DNA of 64,000 nucleotides from Alphaproteobacteria bacterium (GTDB taxonomy: Bacteria > Pseudomonadota > Alphaproteobacteria > Rs-D84). The stretch spans positions 17,699-81,698 of the forward strand of contig JAFVUD010000006.1 in NCBI GenBank assembly GCA_017502865.1, in the 5' to 3' direction. Of this stretch, positions 53,545-63,123 are shown in pieces. The notes below the pieces were generated by a model. That model ran no database searches and was not told the origin of the DNA. It saw only the letters and a list, made by a program, of their open reading frames with translations. A program made the translations under genes and the position numbers. How positions within the stretch are numbered: the stretch's first letter is position 1; every line of letters begins with the position of its first letter.

Positions 53545-55187
53545 TGAAAAATTATGATGTGATTGTTATTGGGGGCGGACATGCCGGGGTAGAAGCCGCG
53601 GCAGCCGCAGCACGTCGTGGGGCAAAAACATTGTTGATGACCCAGGCGGAATCTGATTTGGGGGCACTGTCGTGCAACCCCAGTATTGGTGGCCCCGGTA
53701 AATCACAAATGGTGGCTGAAATAACCGCAATGGGCGGTGTTATGGGGCGGGCCGCCGACCGCAGTGGAATTCATTGGCGTACACTGAATGCGACACACGG
53801 TGCCGCAACCCAGGCTTTGCGTGCCCAGATTGACCGTGATTTATATCACAATGCAATTGTTGATATTTTGGGTGAATACGACAATCTGGATATTAAATTT
53901 GAACCTGTGGTCGATTTGGATATAGATGGTCGTACTGTAAATGGCAAATACAGTGCCAAATCCATTGTTTTAACGACTGGAACGTTCCTGGGTGGGGTTG
54001 TGACACGTGGAAACGAAAAAATCGCATCTGGACGGTTGCAGGACGATGGTACGTATCAGGCACCAGATAAAAATATTTCAAACATACTGCGGGCGGCGGG
54101 CTTTGAACTGTTGCGATTAAAGACAGGGACACCGGCACGCATTAAACGTGATTCCATAGATTTCACTGTATGCGAAGTGCAACCGGGTGACACACCACAT
54201 GATTGGTTCGCAGATGGTGATGAAAACAATAATTACGACAGTGTTTGTTATATAACCCATACAAACGAAAATACACACAATGTTATTCGTGAAAACATTA
54301 AAAACGCACCTATGTACAATGGTGACATTGTTGGAACAGGGCCACGTTATTGCCCCAGTCTGGAAGACAAGGTTATGCGTTTCCCAGAACACACATCGCA
54401 CCATGTATTCTTGGAACCAGAAGGTTTTGACAGCGATTTAATATACCCCAACGGTATTTCGACCAGTTTTGGTGCCGACGTCCAAGATATTTGGATTCGT
54501 ACTATACCGGGGCTGGAAAATGCAGAGATTGTGCGTTATGGGTATGCGATTGAATATGATGCGATTGATGCACGTAAATTAAACGACAGATTGCAATCCA
54601 AAGATATTCCACATATGTTCTTTGCGGGACAGATAAATGGTACATCGGGGTATGAAGAAGCCGCCGCCCAGGGGGTGGTTGCAGGCGCAAATGCCGCGGC
54701 ATATGCATGTGGGTTAGATTGGCTGGAATTAGATCGTACAAATGCGATGATTGGTGTGTTGGTTGATGATATAACCACACTGGGGGTAGATGAGCCATAT
54801 CGTATGTTCACGTCACGTGCAGAATACAGATTAAGCCTGCGTGCAGACAATGCCATCGCACGGTTGGGACCGATTGGGGTAAAATTAGGATTGTGTTCCC
54901 AAGATTGGTATGAAAAGATTTTAGCAGGCAAAACAGATATTATTGCCGAAAATGATAAATTCTATGCCGGTTATATTGCACGCAATGAACGTGAAATTGC
55001 GGCGTATAAACGTGATGCAGACCTGAAAATCCCAGTTGATTTTGTATATGATGGGTTGCCAGGACTGACCAATGAATTGATTGAAAAATTAAATGCGGTG
55101 CGGCCTGAAAATATAGCGGACCTGACCAGAATACCGGGAATGACACCGGCCGGGATTATGGTTGTTATGCGCCGGATAAAGGCATAG
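53544..55187 (+). CDS. mnmG: tRNA uridine-5-carboxymethylaminomethyl modification enzyme MnmG (GidA), short form
   Basis: YDVIVIGGGHAGVEAA FAD motif, ..GTGPRYCPSLEDK.., ..FFAGQINGTSGYEEAAAQG.. 547 aa, and my recollection is that MnmG is usually somewhat over 600 aa. Confidence 0.9.
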   Translation: MKNYDVIVIGGGHAGVEAAAAAARRGAKTLLMTQAESDLGALSCNPSIGGPGKSQMVAEITAMGGVMGRAADRSGIHWRTLNATHGAATQALRAQIDRDLYHNAIVDILGEYDNLDIKFEPVVDLDIDGRTVNGKYSAKSIVLTTGTFLGGVVTRGNEKIASGRLQDDGTYQAPDKNISNILRAAGFELLRLKTGTPARIKRDSIDFTVCEVQPGDTPHDWFADGDENNNYDSVCYITHTNENTHNVIRENIKNAPMYNGDIVGTGPRYCPSLEDKVMRFPEHTSHHVFLEPEGFDSDLIYPNGISTSFGADVQDIWIRTIPGLENAEIVRYGYAIEYDAIDARKLNDRLQSKDIPHMFFAGQINGTSGYEEAAAQGVVAGANAAAYACGLDWLELDRTNAMIGVLVDDITTLGVDEPYRMFTSRAEYRLSLRADNAIARLGPIGVKLGLCSQDWYEKILAGKTDIIAENDKFYAGYIARNEREIAAYKRDADLKIPVDFVYDGLPGLTNELIEKLNAVRPENIADLTRIPGMTPAGIMVVMRRIKA

Positions 55188-55189
55188 CA

Positions 55190-55768
55190 ATGAAATACGA
55201 TGAAATCATAAATAAAATTAAATGCGGTGAAATTTATTCACAATACAGCCACAGCAATAAAATTGACCGGGTAAATGGCCATGATTTCTTGCAGTTTGAT
55301 TGCAGTGGGTTTGTTGCCTGGTACATTGGAATTAATGGATATCTGCGTGCATTGGCCGAAGTACGCAACCAATTAAAAGATACAGATTTTATAAAAGTAA
55401 ATCGTTTCTATTGTCAGGATTTTGAACGTTTCTATCAAAATTCGGGCAATTTGAAATACTGGGAAATTCATAAGGATATTTTTGATATAAAACTAGGCGA
55501 TATATTGGTTGTTGTGTACGATGATGCAAACGGCCATATGATGATTGTTGATAGTATATTGGGGCGCAATGAAAATACATTAGAATTGCGAATTGTTGAT
55601 TCAACACGTTTACACCATAAAAACGACACACGCAGTGGTGAACAAACTGGGATTGGATGTGGTGATATAAAAATTACAAAATCGGGCAATAATATCGTCT
55701 ATGATTCACAGAACCCAGACCGCACACCAGCGACTGTAAATATTTATATTGCCAGGGCAATTAAATAA
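55190..55768 (+). CDS. NlpC/P60-like (papain-fold Cys/His) protein without signal peptide
   Basis: ..LQFDCSGFVAWYIG.. (candidate catalytic Cys) and ..GDILVVVYDDANGHMMIVDS.. (candidate His). The ATG is 2 nt after the mnmG TAG. Confidence 0.5.
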   Translation: MKYDEIINKIKCGEIYSQYSHSNKIDRVNGHDFLQFDCSGFVAWYIGINGYLRALAEVRNQLKDTDFIKVNRFYCQDFERFYQNSGNLKYWEIHKDIFDIKLGDILVVVYDDANGHMMIVDSILGRNENTLELRIVDSTRLHHKNDTRSGEQTGIGCGDIKITKSGNNIVYDSQNPDRTPATVNIYIARAIK

Positions 55769-55810
55769 TACTGGAAATGGGTGGAAATTTGTTTTACAGT
55801 CGGGGGCGTG

Positions 55811-55886
55811 GCCGGTGTAGCTCAGCTGGTAGAGCATCTCATTCGTAATGAGGGGGTCGCAGGTTCAAGTCCTGTCACCGGCACCA
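55811..55886 (+). tRNA. tRNA-Thr (anticodon CGU)
   Basis: GCCGGTGTAGCTCAGCTGGTAGAGCATCTCATTCGTAATGAGGGGGTCGCAGGTTCAAGTCCTGTCACCGGCACCA. Anticodon loop TTCGTAA. Confidence 0.92.
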
Positions 55887-55892
55887 GTTATT

Positions 55893-55917
55893 AAATCCCC
55901 GTTTGGGGATTTTTTTA
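55893..55917 (+). terminator. Terminator after tRNA-Thr
   Basis: ATCCCC-GTTT-GGGGAT then T6. Confidence 0.75.
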
Positions 55918-55934
55918 TTTGTGTGTATCTGTGC

Positions 55935-55963
55935 TTGATTTTTGTCAAAATACATTGTAATGT
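55935..55963 (+). promoter_or_regulatory. Promoter of the ileS leader
   Basis: TTGATT (55935-40), 17 nt, TAATGT (55958-63), 9 nt, ATG (55973). Confidence 0.5.
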
Positions 55964-55972
55964 GTGGGGCAG

Positions 55973-56005
55973 ATGAAACAGACAACAATAATTATTATTA
56001 AATAA
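55973..56005 (+). CDS. Ile-rich leader peptide MKQTTIIIIK (candidate ileS attenuator peptide)
   Basis: ATG AAA CAG ACA ACA ATA ATT ATT ATT AAA TAA. Sits between the promoter and a terminator immediately upstream of ileS. Confidence 0.6.
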   Translation: MKQTTIIIIK

Positions 56006-56031
56006 AGGCACACTGCGCTTTGGCGGTGGCT

Positions 56032-56054
56032 GGGGCGCATGGGCGCCTTTTTTT
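56032..56054 (+). terminator. Attenuator terminator in the ileS leader
   Basis: GGCGC (56034-38) / GCGCC (56043-47) with loop ATGG, extendable by G-U pairs, then T7 (56048-54), 22 nt before the ileS ATG. Confidence 0.6.
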
Positions 56055-56076
56055 AATAGAATAACGGAGTAATAAA

Positions 56077-59000
56077 ATGGCATATCATAAAACAGACGCT
56101 AAGGCCAATTTCCCGCAGTTAGAGCAGGAAGTTATGCAATACTGGCGGGAAAATAATACATTCCAAAAATCATTAGACAATACAAAACAGGGACATCCGT
56201 TCAGTTTCTATGATGGCCCCCCGTTTGCAAATGGGTTGCCACACTGGGGACATTTGGGTGTGTCGGCGGTTAAAGATATGGTGTCCAGATACCAGACCAT
56301 GAATGGCAAACATGTTGTACGTGAACTGGGGTGGGATTGCCATGGTTTGCCGGCTGAAAATTCTGTTGAAAAGAAACAGGGCAGGGCCGCCAAAGATATC
56401 GTTGCGTCTGACGGTATTGCGGCGTTCTGTGATATGTGCCGTGGCGACGTTATGACATATGCGACCGAATGGGAAAGATTTATTGAACGTATGGGCCGCT
56501 GGGTCAAGGTTGGCGATGATTATGGTTATAAAACCATGAATAAAAACTATATGGAATCCATGCTGTGGACACTGAAATCACTGTATGAAAAAGGATTGTT
56601 GTACAAAGATTACAGCGTAAATCCATATGACTGGGTAAATGGTACGGTTGTTTCTAATTCCGAAGCATCACAGGATTATCGTGAAATTGTTGATGATGCT
56701 GTGACTGTTTGGTTCGAATTGGAAAATGGCGACCGGGTTATTGCATGGACAACAACACCATGGACATTGCCTGCAAACAGTGCGTTGGCGGTTAATCCAA
56801 ATATGGAATATCTGCGTATGCAGGATAATGATGGGGCTGTTTATGTCGTTGCAGAAAGCCGCCTAAAGGCATATGAAAAGCAATTCGCAAACGCAACCGA
56901 AATTGGTCGTGTCAAAGGGGCAGATTTGGCGGGTATGCACTATACACCATTGTTCCCATATTATGCGGGGCAATCTGATTTGCTGTTCCGGGTAATACCG
57001 GCGGATTATGTTTCCGACAGTGACGGTACAGGTATCGTTCATATTGCACCAGCGTATGGGGCAGATGACTTCTGGGCGGCAAAAAACATCGACCCACATT
57101 TCCCAGTACTGTTGAATGTTGATACATACGGGAACTTTGATGAAACTGTGTTGGATTTTGCCGGTGAAAATATTTTCGCAGCAACACCAAAGATTCTGGA
57201 TTGGTTAAAGGTAAATGGAAAACTGGTCAAAAAAGAACAGTATAAGCATTCGTATCCATTTGGTGACCGCAGTAAAGAAAAACTGATTTATCGTGCAACA
57301 GATTCGTGGTATATCGATGTGCCAAAAATCAAAGATAAACTGTTGGCGAATAATGCAAAGGTTAACTGGACATCGGCGGGTGAACGATTCCGTTCATGGA
57401 TTGAAAACGCACGTCCATGGTCTATTTCCCGTAATCGTTTCTGGGGTATGCCATTGCCAATTTGGGAAAAAGACGGCGAAATCAAAGTTTTTGGTTCAAT
57501 CGCAGAACTGGAAGAATTCTTTGGGGTTAAGGTAGAAGACCTGCACCGACCAACATTAGACAAACTGACCAAAGACGGTTGGACACGTATTAGTGACGTT
57601 TTAGACTGTTGGGTGGAAAGTGGTTCTATGCCATGGGCATCGTTGCACTATCCATTTGAAAACCAGGATAAATTCAATGCAACATTCCCAGCAGATTATA
57701 TTATCGAAGGACAAGACCAGACACGTGGTTGGTTCTATGCGTTGATGGTGTTGGCAACAGCGTTGTTTGACAAACCGGCATTTATGAATGTGTCTGCAAA
57801 TGGTATGGTGGTTGACGAAAACAAAAAGAAGTTTTCTAAGTCACTGAAAAACTTTGTAAATCCAGAACAGCAGATTGAACAATTCGGTGCAGATGCAATT
57901 CGTTTGTTCATTTTGGGTTCTAATTTCATGAAAGCGGAACCAGTGCCAGTTGATAAAGAAGGTAAAGTGTTTGCAGAATCTACCAAGACTATCCAGACAC
58001 CGCTGTGGAATGCGTATCACTTCTTTACACTGTATGCAAACGCAGGAAACATTGTTGCATCAGGCAAGACAGATTCCAGCAATGCATTGGATAAATACAT
58101 TTTGGCAGAATTAAATGTTTTAACCGGGGTGGTTCGTGATGCGCTGGACGAATATAAACCAGATGTGGCGGTCAAAGAATTTGTTCGATTCTTGGACGTA
58201 TTAAACAACTGGTACATAAGACGTGGTCGTGCACGTTTCTGGGACGAAGAACAGGCGGCATTTGATACGTTGCATTACGTGTTGGTCACACTGTGTCAAT
58301 TGTTGGCACCGTTTGCACCATTTGCAACAGAATATATCTATCGCAATTTGACCGGTAATGAATCTGTGCATTTGACACAATTCCCAGTAGCAGGTGATGT
58401 TGATATGAAGATTGTAGATGATATGCGTCGTGTACAATCGGTTGTATCGGTTGGAAAACAATTACGTGAACAATATAAACTGCGTAATCGTTTGCCGTTG
58501 AATTCAATGACCGTGGCGGGGGCTGATTTGTCACAATATGCCGATATTATCCGTGATGAACTGAATGTAAAATCAGTTAAATTCGTTAAAAATGTCGATG
58601 ATGTGTCAGACAGTTTTGTGTACCTGATTACACCAAAGATTGGGGCACGTTTGGGCGGGGCATTAAAAGAAATTATCCCGGCTGTTAAACGTGGGGAATA
58701 TGAAATCAATGGTGAAAATTTGGTTGCAGGTGGCCATACACTGAATCCAGATGAATTTGAAAACCGTTTGACCGTTAAAGACGGTGTGACGGGTGCCGCA
58801 TTGCCAGATAATACAGCGGTGGTGGTTCTGGATACAGAAGTCAGTGCAGACCTGGTCGCAGAAGGGTTGGCGAATGATGCGTTGCGTTTTATCCAAGATA
58901 CACGCAAGACAGCCGGACTGGAAGTATCAGATCGCATCGTATTGACATATGCCGCAGATCCTGCGTTGGCGATTGCAATTGACCAGCATAAAAAACGTAT

Positions 59001-59100
59001 CATGCGTGATGCACTGATTGTTGATATGCAGGTGGGCGATGGCGAATACGATACAGAAATCGAAGGTTATTCGTTCAGTATTTCTGTACACAAGGCATAG
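56077..59100 (+). CDS. ileS: Isoleucyl-tRNA synthetase (type 2, eukaryote-like form)
   Basis: 1007 aa with HIGH-type PPFANGLPHWGHL, KMSKS-type KKFSKSLKN and a CP1 editing domain. SD GGAG. Confidence 0.95.
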   Translation: MAYHKTDAKANFPQLEQEVMQYWRENNTFQKSLDNTKQGHPFSFYDGPPFANGLPHWGHLGVSAVKDMVSRYQTMNGKHVVRELGWDCHGLPAENSVEKKQGRAAKDIVASDGIAAFCDMCRGDVMTYATEWERFIERMGRWVKVGDDYGYKTMNKNYMESMLWTLKSLYEKGLLYKDYSVNPYDWVNGTVVSNSEASQDYREIVDDAVTVWFELENGDRVIAWTTTPWTLPANSALAVNPNMEYLRMQDNDGAVYVVAESRLKAYEKQFANATEIGRVKGADLAGMHYTPLFPYYAGQSDLLFRVIPADYVSDSDGTGIVHIAPAYGADDFWAAKNIDPHFPVLLNVDTYGNFDETVLDFAGENIFAATPKILDWLKVNGKLVKKEQYKHSYPFGDRSKEKLIYRATDSWYIDVPKIKDKLLANNAKVNWTSAGERFRSWIENARPWSISRNRFWGMPLPIWEKDGEIKVFGSIAELEEFFGVKVEDLHRPTLDKLTKDGWTRISDVLDCWVESGSMPWASLHYPFENQDKFNATFPADYIIEGQDQTRGWFYALMVLATALFDKPAFMNVSANGMVVDENKKKFSKSLKNFVNPEQQIEQFGADAIRLFILGSNFMKAEPVPVDKEGKVFAESTKTIQTPLWNAYHFFTLYANAGNIVASGKTDSSNALDKYILAELNVLTGVVRDALDEYKPDVAVKEFVRFLDVLNNWYIRRGRARFWDEEQAAFDTLHYVLVTLCQLLAPFAPFATEYIYRNLTGNESVHLTQFPVAGDVDMKIVDDMRRVQSVVSVGKQLREQYKLRNRLPLNSMTVAGADLSQYADIIRDELNVKSVKFVKNVDDVSDSFVYLITPKIGARLGGALKEIIPAVKRGEYEINGENLVAGGHTLNPDEFENRLTVKDGVTGAALPDNTAVVVLDTEVSADLVAEGLANDALRFIQDTRKTAGLEVSDRIVLTYAADPALAIAIDQHKKRIMRDALIVDMQVGDGEYDTEIEGYSFSISVHKA

Positions 59101-63093: not shown

Positions 63094-63123
63094 ATAAATA
63101 AAAGCCGTCTATTGACGGCTTTT
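63094..63123 (-). terminator. Internal terminator/attenuator between rplT and pheS
   Basis: Minus strand AAAAGCCGTC-AATA-GACGGC then TTTTATTTAT. Only about 24 nt remain before the pheS ATG. Confidence 0.6.

Follow-up and report, generated by a model that had tools for sequence, protein, structure and literature searches.

A putative isoleucine leader-peptide attenuator upstream of ileS in the Candidatus Enterousia clade of gut Alphaproteobacteria

Results

An Ile-codon leader and an RNA switch precede ileS

The window analysed here is a stretch of 64,000 nucleotides (nt) from the genome of a Candidatus Enterousia-like gut alphaproteobacterium (GenBank assembly GCA_017502865.1, contig JAFVUD010000006.1, positions 17,699 to 81,698 of the forward strand). 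Directly upstream of its ileS gene, which encodes isoleucyl-tRNA synthetase (IleRS), about 80 nt hold a ten-codon leader with four Ile codons and a whole terminator/antiterminator switch. Most likely, this element works as a leader-peptide transcription attenuator of the ribosome-mediated type, through which charged tRNA-Ile would control IleRS synthesis by feedback, and from comparison of related sequences we give this reading a probability of about 0.8. The direction of the response, in which low charged tRNA-Ile would lead to more IleRS, is proposed by analogy with pheST and with T-box-controlled ileS. A leader-peptide attenuator was also the core of the original prediction, which had been made from the letters of the window, and the comparative evidence (frame, length, synonymous Ile changes and both alternative helices) supports it. 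All coordinates given in that prediction were found to be correct. The parts of the element and the gene that it precedes are as follows; all positions are those of the window.

55973 to 56005, + strand: leader open reading frame (ORF) MKQTTIIIIK and stop, ten sense codons and TAA, read in the sequence and in the elements of relatives
55988 to 55999, + strand: regulatory Ile codons ATA ATT ATT ATT, identified from codon counts across 93 elements
56005 to 56009, + strand: 5' strand (AAGGC) of a possible outer helix, pairing with GCCUU at 56045-49 as part of the minimum free energy (MFE) structure
56011 to 56028, + strand: candidate early or pause hairpin (56011-16/56023-28), mutually exclusive with the antiterminator
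56013 to 56041, + strand: antiterminator hairpin, core 56014-24 (UGCGCUUUGGC)/56029-39 (GCUGGGGCGCA), loop GGUG, found by MFE folding and RNAalifold
56032 to 56054, + strand: intrinsic terminator, stem GGGGCGC (56032-38)/GCGCCUU (56043-49), loop AUGG, T7 at 56048-54, found by a terminator scan
56064 to 56069, + strand: ileS Shine-Dalgarno sequence ACGGAG, 7 nt before the ATG and kept in the alignment of relatives
56077 to 59100, + strand: ileS, the regulated gene, encoding a type-2 (MupA/MupB-like) isoleucine--tRNA ligase of 1007 amino acids (TIGR00392, 772 bits with a cutoff of 621)

The element is conserved at ileS throughout the clade

Relatives were collected by IleRS-based searches of GTDB species representatives. 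About 110 loci were obtained from Candidatus Enterousia and other gut alphaproteobacterial metagenome-assembled genomes (MAGs), with an IleRS 71-87% identical to that of the window and from hosts that include ruminants, horse, mouse, chicken and human; one relative (L102) is a closed chromosome of 958,618 bp. The element is present upstream of ileS in every related locus with sufficient upstream sequence, which amounts to 94 distinct sequences. In what follows, codon counts refer to the 93 distinct elements that were tabulated, while peptide and folding counts refer to the 94 distinct sequences. A search of relatives for an Ile-run ORF followed by a terminator had been proposed in the original prediction, and both are kept upstream of ileS in every relative of the Enterousia clade.

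The identity to the window is 92% for the leader ORF and 94% for the switch core, compared with 87% for codon positions 1 and 2 of ileS and 56% for its third positions. Constraint on the element is therefore stronger than on the protein that the following gene encodes. The nearest IleRS outside the clade (P0001) is about 50% identical. In nhmmer searches of the window and all loci, the element occurred as one copy per locus and only at ileS, and a pattern search of the window revealed no further copies of the switch core at up to three mismatches. The possibility that the switch core is a generic module was rejected on the same grounds, as it is single-copy in each locus and always at ileS.

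The leader ORF carries a coding signature

In the window, the leader ORF consists of the codons ATG AAA CAG ACA ACA ATA ATT ATT ATT AAA TAA, exactly the mini-ORF with four consecutive Ile codons that had been pointed out at first. Nearly all elements follow the pattern M-x4-I-I-I-I-[K/R]-stop. The start codon is ATG throughout, except for a GTG in one relative, the length is ten codons in about 87 of the 93 elements and nine in six of them, and all insertions and deletions are multiples of three. The stop codon is TAA in 90 elements, TAG in two and TGA in one. The run comprises four Ile codons in most relatives and three or five in a few, and the substitutions within it are almost all synonymous (ATC/ATT/ATA), with GTA (Val) in two sequences. 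Codons 2-5, by comparison, vary freely, yielding 53 different peptides among the 94 sequences and never a stop; their composition is 65% A and 22% C, and they are therefore expected to be unstructured.

A structural RNA without coding function would not be expected to show such a three-base periodicity and such conservation of the frame. When the 190-nt intergenic region was subjected to dinucleotide shuffling, an ATG-started short ORF with four consecutive Ile codons resulted in 22 of 20,000 cases. From the kept start, frame, length and stop and from the synonymous Ile changes, we infer that the leader ORF is translated.

The identity of the Ile codons is also conserved by position. The first is ATA in 85 of the 93 elements, the second is ATT in 87 and the third is ATT in 92, whereas the fourth is ATT in 71 and ATA in 21. 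Among the Ile codons of the neighbouring genes, ATA is used least (30 of 230). AUA is decoded by a different tRNA-Ile isoacceptor from AUU and needs the lysidine-modified tRNA-Ile2. The conservation of AUA as the first Ile codon thus suggests that both tRNA-Ile species are sensed, and the ATA codon may add sensing of the lysidine-dependent tRNA-Ile2.

As a separate observation, the codon preceding the stop (56000-56002 in the window) is AAA or AGA, encoding Lys or Arg, in 89 of the 93 elements.

Two mutually exclusive helices share one strand

The RNA from 55970 to 56060 folds with an MFE of -30.6 kcal/mol (z = -5.2; none of 200 shuffles was as stable), with the antiterminator as the core of the structure. 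The antiterminator had been proposed as the pairing 56014-21/56032-39; this helix proved real and extends to 11 pairs, and its strand 56032-39 is common to the antiterminator and the 5' arm of the terminator. The terminator, predicted as a GC hairpin and T7 located 22 nt before the ileS ATG, was likewise reported by the terminator scan.

Pairing was counted on MAFFT alignments that had not been fitted to any structure. For the terminator, 91-92% of the cells are paired, versus at most 75% in slid registers, and nine sequences exhibit a compensatory CG-to-UA change. It is present in all 94 sequences, is followed by T5-T8 each time, and has energies from -6.8 to -15.9 kcal/mol (mean -12.4) when the 94 sequences are folded singly. 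The antiterminator, with a mean energy of -16.0 kcal/mol over the same sequences, shows 94% of cells paired versus at most 57% in slid registers, and its changes include GC-to-AU and UG-to-CG. RNAalifold, unaided, picks the antiterminator as the consensus on the structure-unbiased alignment, and when the 3' arm of the terminator is left out of the transcript, the MFE structure sequesters essentially the whole 5' arm in 85 of the 94 sequences. The covariation check that accompanied the prediction thus found the pairing of both helices kept, with some compensatory changes. In three relatives (L068, L070 and L078), all three strands change together (GCGC to GCAC, GGGGCGC to GGGGUGC and GCGCC to GCACC), so that both alternative helices are preserved.

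The antiterminator begins 8-10 nt past the stop codon in 84 of the 94 sequences, despite a variable intervening sequence. Two further helices lie in or around this region. The competing pairing 56011-16/56023-28 exists as foreseen in the original prediction, but its conservation is weak: 83% of it is paired, with little covariation and energies ranging from -1.6 to -14.2 kcal/mol across sequences, and we rejected it as a conserved pause hairpin. For the outer helix, covariation is weak: a post-stop UGG co-occurs with a pre-T-run CCAU in 10 of 11 cases, and the duplex energy of the own strands is -4.30 kcal/mol versus -4.03 for crossed strands. This helix (56005-09/56045-49) could possibly tie up the 3' arm of the terminator.

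Proposed mechanism

In the model that we propose, transcription would begin at or just before the AUG at 55973, or would run on from a tRNA-Thr gene in about one third of the species, and a ribosome would load without a Shine-Dalgarno sequence and translate the ten-codon MKQTTIIIIK. When Ile-tRNA-Ile is plentiful, the ribosome would soon be at the UAA (56003-05), where its footprint would cover the next 10-13 nt or so and mask the base of the antiterminator (56013-16) as well as the possible outer helix strand at 56005-09. With the antiterminator blocked, GGGGCGC (56032-38) would pair with GCGCCUU (56043-49), and RNA polymerase would stop in the T7, before ileS. When charged tRNA-Ile is scarce, the ribosome would stall at AUA-AUU-AUU-AUU (55988-99) and leave the RNA from about 56005-13 onward free. 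The freed segment 56014-24 would then capture 56029-39, no terminator would form, and transcription would read through into ileS. The AUA and AUU stall codons would sample both tRNA-Ile isoacceptors.

The conserved spacing between the stop and the antiterminator fits this model, in which a ribosome at the stop codon would block the antiterminator. In equilibrium folding with ribosome masks, the probability of the antiterminator is about 0.7 in the absence of a ribosome and about 0.71 with a stall at the second or third Ile codon. The argument from ribosome reach in the original prediction is plausible as regards the spacing, which is kept at 8-10 nt, whereas the masked folding depends on the footprint assumed (see below). 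A bolder version, which we put forward only tentatively and consider rather unlikely in its entirety, is that of a minimal attenuator in which the sole ribosome-sensitive step is arrival at the stop, the ORF is read from a 5'-terminal AUG or a tRNA-processed end, and this type of control is widespread.

Promoter, tRNA-adjacent loci and translation start

The region between the upstream tRNA gene and the leader contains the following features.

55811 to 55886, + strand: tRNA-Thr(CGU) gene (ARAGORN; Rfam tRNA, 70.3 bits)
55893 to 55919, + strand: terminator of tRNA-Thr in the window genome, hairpin 55893-55912 and T-run (terminator scan)
55935 to 55963, + strand: putative sigma-70-type promoter, -35 TTGATT (55935-40), 17-nt spacer and -10 TAATGT (55958-63), read in the sequence with its skeleton kept in relatives
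55941 to 55948, + strand: TTTGTCAA box, inside the promoter spacer in the window

Two architectures are observed. A TTG...(16-18 nt)...TAnnnT skeleton precedes the leader in 62 loci, among them the window, where the promoter claimed at the outset, TTGATT-17-TAATGT, is found at exactly the predicted position, 9 nt before the ATG at 55973. The gap between the -10 box and the ATG is 7 nt in 23 of these loci, 8 nt in 22, 9 nt in six, 10 nt in nine and 11-12 nt in two. The transcription start predicted from this geometry coincides with the first base of the ATG at 55973 or lies no more than about 3 nt from it, and the mRNA would accordingly be leaderless. A Shine-Dalgarno-like motif is present before ileS in 76 of the 93 loci and before the leader ATG in 11 of them. 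Given the gap of 7-10 nt and the lack of a Shine-Dalgarno sequence, translation of the leader would be leaderless, near-leaderless or Shine-Dalgarno-independent, for instance with initiation on an A-rich leader. Caulobacter possesses 375 leaderless mRNAs, which are translated as efficiently as leadered ones (PMC4117421), and this makes leaderless translation plausible in Alphaproteobacteria. A T[TC]GTCAA box recurs 60-90 nt upstream of the leader ATG in 26 of these 62 loci and is thereby strongly enriched over its background frequency of 0.018 per 120 nt. It may serve as a regulator site or as a second -35 box, or it may be a remnant.

The second architecture is found in 30 loci, or about one third of the species. 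The loci in which tRNA-Thr ends 9-20 nt before the leader ATG are:

L046, L048, L051, L056, L058, L063, L072, L074-L076 and L079-L081: tRNA-adjacent leaders, at about 1300-1400 of each locus
L083, L085-L087, L090-L092, L098, L102, L103, L108, L112, L114, L116 and L117: tRNA-adjacent leaders, at about 1300-1400 of each locus

In 28 of the 30 loci, the 3' end of tRNA-Thr is located 9-20 nt upstream of the leader ATG, and in the two others about 50 nt upstream. The anticodon is CGU in all loci checked apart from L090 (UGU). Neither a terminator nor a promoter would fit into the A-rich spacer, which implies that tRNA-Thr, leader, attenuator and ileS form one transcription unit. As read from the sequence, the terminator of the attenuator doubles as the tRNA-Thr terminator in these loci, and the 5' end of the leader would be made by 3' processing of the tRNA. 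In the window, a terminator and the putative promoter are inserted between tRNA-Thr and the leader.

On the other side of the switch, the distance from the T-run to the ileS ATG (56077) is 22 nt in the window and usually 20-32 nt in relatives, leaving no room for a further ileS promoter. In one relative (L049:1389-1500), the T-run and the Shine-Dalgarno sequence of ileS are separated by an insertion of about 90 nt, with repeated TTCAAAGTTCA and TTTGAAC motifs.

Weighing of alternative explanations

Several observations weigh against a leader-peptide attenuator that is induced by a shortage of charged tRNA-Ile. The switch core is nearly invariant, which limits covariation; the promoter matches the E. 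coli consensus at 7 of 12 positions and was uncalled by the promoter scan; and the host organism is known from MAGs alone. The ORF contains no classical segment 1, and the weakly conserved early hairpin is located beyond it. Three gut Alphaproteobacteria with an IleRS about 50% identical (L122, L123 and L184) exhibit no leader or attenuator upstream of ileS, where a plain promoter region (CTTGATTTTT...TTGACATACTGG) is found together with a strong Shine-Dalgarno sequence; the element is therefore confined to the Enterousia clade. Finally, the masked folding is non-monotonic. A stall at the fourth Ile codon gives a terminator probability of 0.97, and a ribosome at the stop gives the terminator a probability of 0.97 with a +16 footprint and the antiterminator a probability of 0.92 with a +13 footprint, so that the answer flips with a change of 2-3 nt in the assumed footprint. 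As the competing states are 1-3 kcal/mol apart, kinetics will decide between them.

These folding results are what would be cited for the same hardware serving another logic, in which the ORF reports general translation or coupling, or in which stalling lowers ileS read-through, instead of acting as an Ile-specific inducer: the +13 footprint at the stop favours the antiterminator, the stall at the fourth Ile codon favours the early hairpin and the terminator, and with no segment 1 in the ORF the untranslated default may be read-through. Nevertheless, energy differences of 1-3 kcal/mol fall within the error of the model, the four Ile codons kept with synonymous changes are difficult to account for if the signal is anything other than Ile decoding, and the known synthetase leaders (the pheST attenuator and T-boxes) induce at low charging (PMC1262725). 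We consider this alternative improbable. It is also quite improbable that the element is a constitutive partial terminator with a structured 5' untranslated region, which would also end the tRNA-Thr transcript and whose ORF would be non-regulatory or untranslated. The leader does lack a Shine-Dalgarno sequence, and in about 30 species the hairpin and T-run are the sole terminator after tRNA-Thr, but in the window separate signals serve the two, a terminator for the tRNA and a promoter-like site for the leader. Moreover, a plain terminator would need neither the kept ATG, frame, length, stop and synonymous Ile changes nor the conserved antiterminator at a fixed spacing of 8-10 nt, and the ORF is more conserved than the non-synonymous sites of ileS.

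A trans-acting factor (IleRS, uncharged tRNA-Ile or another protein) might instead bind the near-invariant GCGCUUUGGCGGUGGCUGGGGCGC core, leaving the ORF secondary. IleRS would then act as in ThrRS-type autoregulation, and uncharged tRNA-Ile would make a T-box-like contact through its acceptor end. The core is conserved beyond the needs of pairing, as seven of its pairs are invariant and a run of three U-G pairs is retained, and its UGGC and GGUGG motifs resemble the T-box bulge. Against this, there is no T-box or other Rfam match at E up to 10, the 45 nt or so between the stop and the T-run are too short for a Stem I with a specifier, and the loop varies (GGUG, GGUU, GAUG and larger loops). 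The dual pairing of the shared arm accounts for much of the invariance, and the coding signature of the ORF would be left unexplained, which makes binding of such a factor very unlikely. Least probable of all, to an extreme degree, is a functional hydrophobic micro-peptide or a trans-acting small RNA (sRNA) consisting of the terminated transcript of about 80 nt. Terminated leader transcripts can gain trans functions, and P9, an RNA related by its logic (see below), was originally listed as an sRNA, its stable transcript being about 130 nt long (PMC1524904). However, residues 2-5 are free to vary, with 53 peptides among 94 sequences, and the element is always directly upstream of ileS, once per locus. 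We therefore retain the leader-peptide attenuator reading.

A second, unrelated Ile leader before ileS in Gammaproteobacteria

An unrelated Ile-rich leader ORF with an antiterminator and a terminator precedes a type-2 ileS in Veronia nyctiphanis, Veronia pacifica and metagenomic relatives. These P9-type leaders are located as follows.

L132:1290-1503 and L134:1290-1503: leaders of the cultured Vibrionaceae V. nyctiphanis and V. pacifica, upstream of ileS
L133:1000-1187: leader of a Pseudomonadota MAG, upstream of ileS
L189:185-381: leader of a further locus, upstream of ileS
L190-L192: leaders upstream of ileS

In L133, a TTGACA-17-TATATT promoter is followed after 7 nt by an ORF encoding MKTAPETIRIIIIIP and a stop, a GGUGGGU arm complementary to the 5' arm of the terminator, the terminator AAACCCGCC-UAAGA-GGCGGGUUUUU, and about 40 nt to ileS. 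The leader peptide is MKINAIISRIISIISFEMVG in the two Veronia species and MNITPNFQRIIIIIS in L189, each followed by a stop; L190 contains FQRIIHIIS, the leader of L192 ends in FSIISIIHN, and L191 is of the same design.

Three of these leaders score above the gathering threshold of 43 bits of RF00624, "Pseudomonas sRNA P9" (48.4 bits for L132, 44.7 for L133 and 50.6 for L189), while the window element shows no match to RF00624 at E up to 10. The P9-type leaders resemble the window element in having an Ile-rich ORF near a strong promoter, an antiterminator arm AUGGUGGG and a terminator AACCCGCC...GGCGGGUUUUU, followed by ileS. They differ from it in their unrelated sequence and structure, in their leaders of 15-24 codons and in a classical 1:2 hairpin that involves the ORF. 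Leader-peptide control of ileS thus seems, from these sequences, to have arisen at least twice.

Rfam lists P9 as an sRNA gene without an assigned function, and the consensus of the family starts with Ile codons (AUUAUUAUUACCGCCAUU). The P9 transcript of Pseudomonas aeruginosa PAO1 is about 130 nt long and lies 44 nt upstream of a same-strand gene of 405 nt (PMC1524904). Judging from the coordinates, this gene is probably the putative PA1325, and PA1325-PA1326 (ilvA2) are the most up-regulated genes in an EF-G mutant (bioRxiv 10.1101/842781). On the basis of its sequence, P9 is probably a cis-acting Ile leader-peptide attenuator and not a trans-acting sRNA.

Other observations in the window

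The 64-kb window was scanned for short codon-run ORFs followed by a T-run, and no convincing other leader-peptide attenuator was found. Upstream of pheS, on the minus strand at 63095-63122, a terminator-like hairpin AAAAGCCGUC-AAUA-GACGGCUUUU is followed by a U-rich tail. It is located about 25-35 nt before the pheS ATG (63069) and past the stop of the upstream ORF (63158), so close that a promoter would not fit in. The region upstream of pheS in the window showed no Phe-run leader ORF, and the hairpin could reflect read-through or attenuation control of pheST by other means.

Discussion

Significance

To our knowledge, the regulation of aminoacyl-tRNA synthetases is little known outside the T-boxes of Firmicutes and Actinobacteria and a few E. 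coli paradigms (pheST and thrS). The element described here is a strongly selected cis-element of ileS in an uncultured, small-genome gut clade, with about 100 natural sequence variants available for comparison. Its compactness makes it a minimal system for leaderless initiation coupled to attenuation, and it is a candidate part for Ile-tRNA-responsive synthetic control. Its unusual traits are a ten-codon ORF without a Shine-Dalgarno sequence, leaderless or tRNA-fused, a switch located after the stop, and AUA as the first Ile codon. The class of mechanism will not surprise a specialist; an experiment is worthwhile in view of the gene targeted, the small size of the element, its many natural variants and its connection with P9. 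The presence of P9-type leaders at ileS suggests that annotation underestimates how common such attenuators are and that P9 is better interpreted as a cis-acting leader.

If the bolder, stop-gated version of the model were true, one short transcript would couple tRNA maturation, decoding by both tRNA-Ile isoacceptors and IleRS synthesis. Together with the P9-type leaders and the leader coding sequence (CDS) annotated upstream of Caulobacter ileS (see below), it would then represent an alternative to the T-box for ileS in Proteobacteria, one that is widespread, has evolved repeatedly and has been overlooked.

Comparison with known systems

An Rfam 15 scan of 54500-57500 at E up to 10 found tRNA alone, with no T-box, amino-acid leader, riboswitch or P9; the sole hit to an amino-acid leader family was a Phe_leader match of 18.5 bits, versus a threshold of 55, on the minus strand with E = 9.8. 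Full-text literature searches found no description of leader-peptide attenuation of ileS, and a query with the promoter string of Methylorubrum ileS (PMC9320726) returned a single chance match, in an archaeal MAG. The original prediction was made without awareness of such attenuation for ileS. As far as published descriptions go, this is nearly right, but a Caulobacter "ileS leader CDS" has been annotated and P9-type Ile leaders exist. The mechanism is thus known in kind, with ileS as a target new to the literature searched.

The closest annotation is CCNA_03934 of Caulobacter crescentus, the "ileS leader CDS", which is also a small translated ORF upstream of an alphaproteobacterial ileS (PMC4117421). 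CCNA_03934 served only as a negative control, and the text gives neither its sequence nor its codon content nor a mechanism (PMC4117421). Furthermore, Caulobacter ileS adjoins lspA, unlike the ileS of the window.

T-boxes act on the same gene and the same signal, namely the charging of tRNA-Ile, in Firmicutes and, at the translational level, in Actinobacteria, where ileS is under a translational T-box (PMC1262725). In contrast to the element described here, the T-box recognises uncharged tRNA directly, by means of Stem I, the specifier and the T-box bulge, with no part played by a ribosome or an ORF; the leader in the window is far too short for this. The leaderless polycysteine short ORFs of mycobacteria are also amino-acid-responsive attenuators with a run of codons for a single residue, but they concern Cys in Actinobacteria, precede cysteine-metabolism operons and lack a simple intrinsic-terminator switch (bioRxiv 10.1101/834739).

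Leader-peptide control of synthetase genes has a gammaproteobacterial precedent in pheST and has been predicted for trpS and leuS in Streptomyces (PMC1262725). The E. coli pheST attenuator (pheM) resembles the window element in acting on an aminoacyl-tRNA synthetase gene through a run of cognate codons and an intrinsic terminator, with autoregulation by charged tRNA. It differs in sensing Phe instead of Ile, in its 14-codon leader with a Shine-Dalgarno sequence and in its unrelated RNA sequence. The attenuators of ilvGMEDA and ilvBN (ilvL and ivbL), thr and trp rely on the same choice between antiterminator and terminator governed by ribosome stalling, and the ilv leaders also sense Ile-tRNA. 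These, however, control biosynthetic operons and have leaders of 14-32 codons, with a segment 1 in the ORF that forms a 1:2 hairpin, whereas the element in the window combines a 10-codon, A/U-rich and unpaired ORF with a switch that lies wholly downstream of the stop codon.

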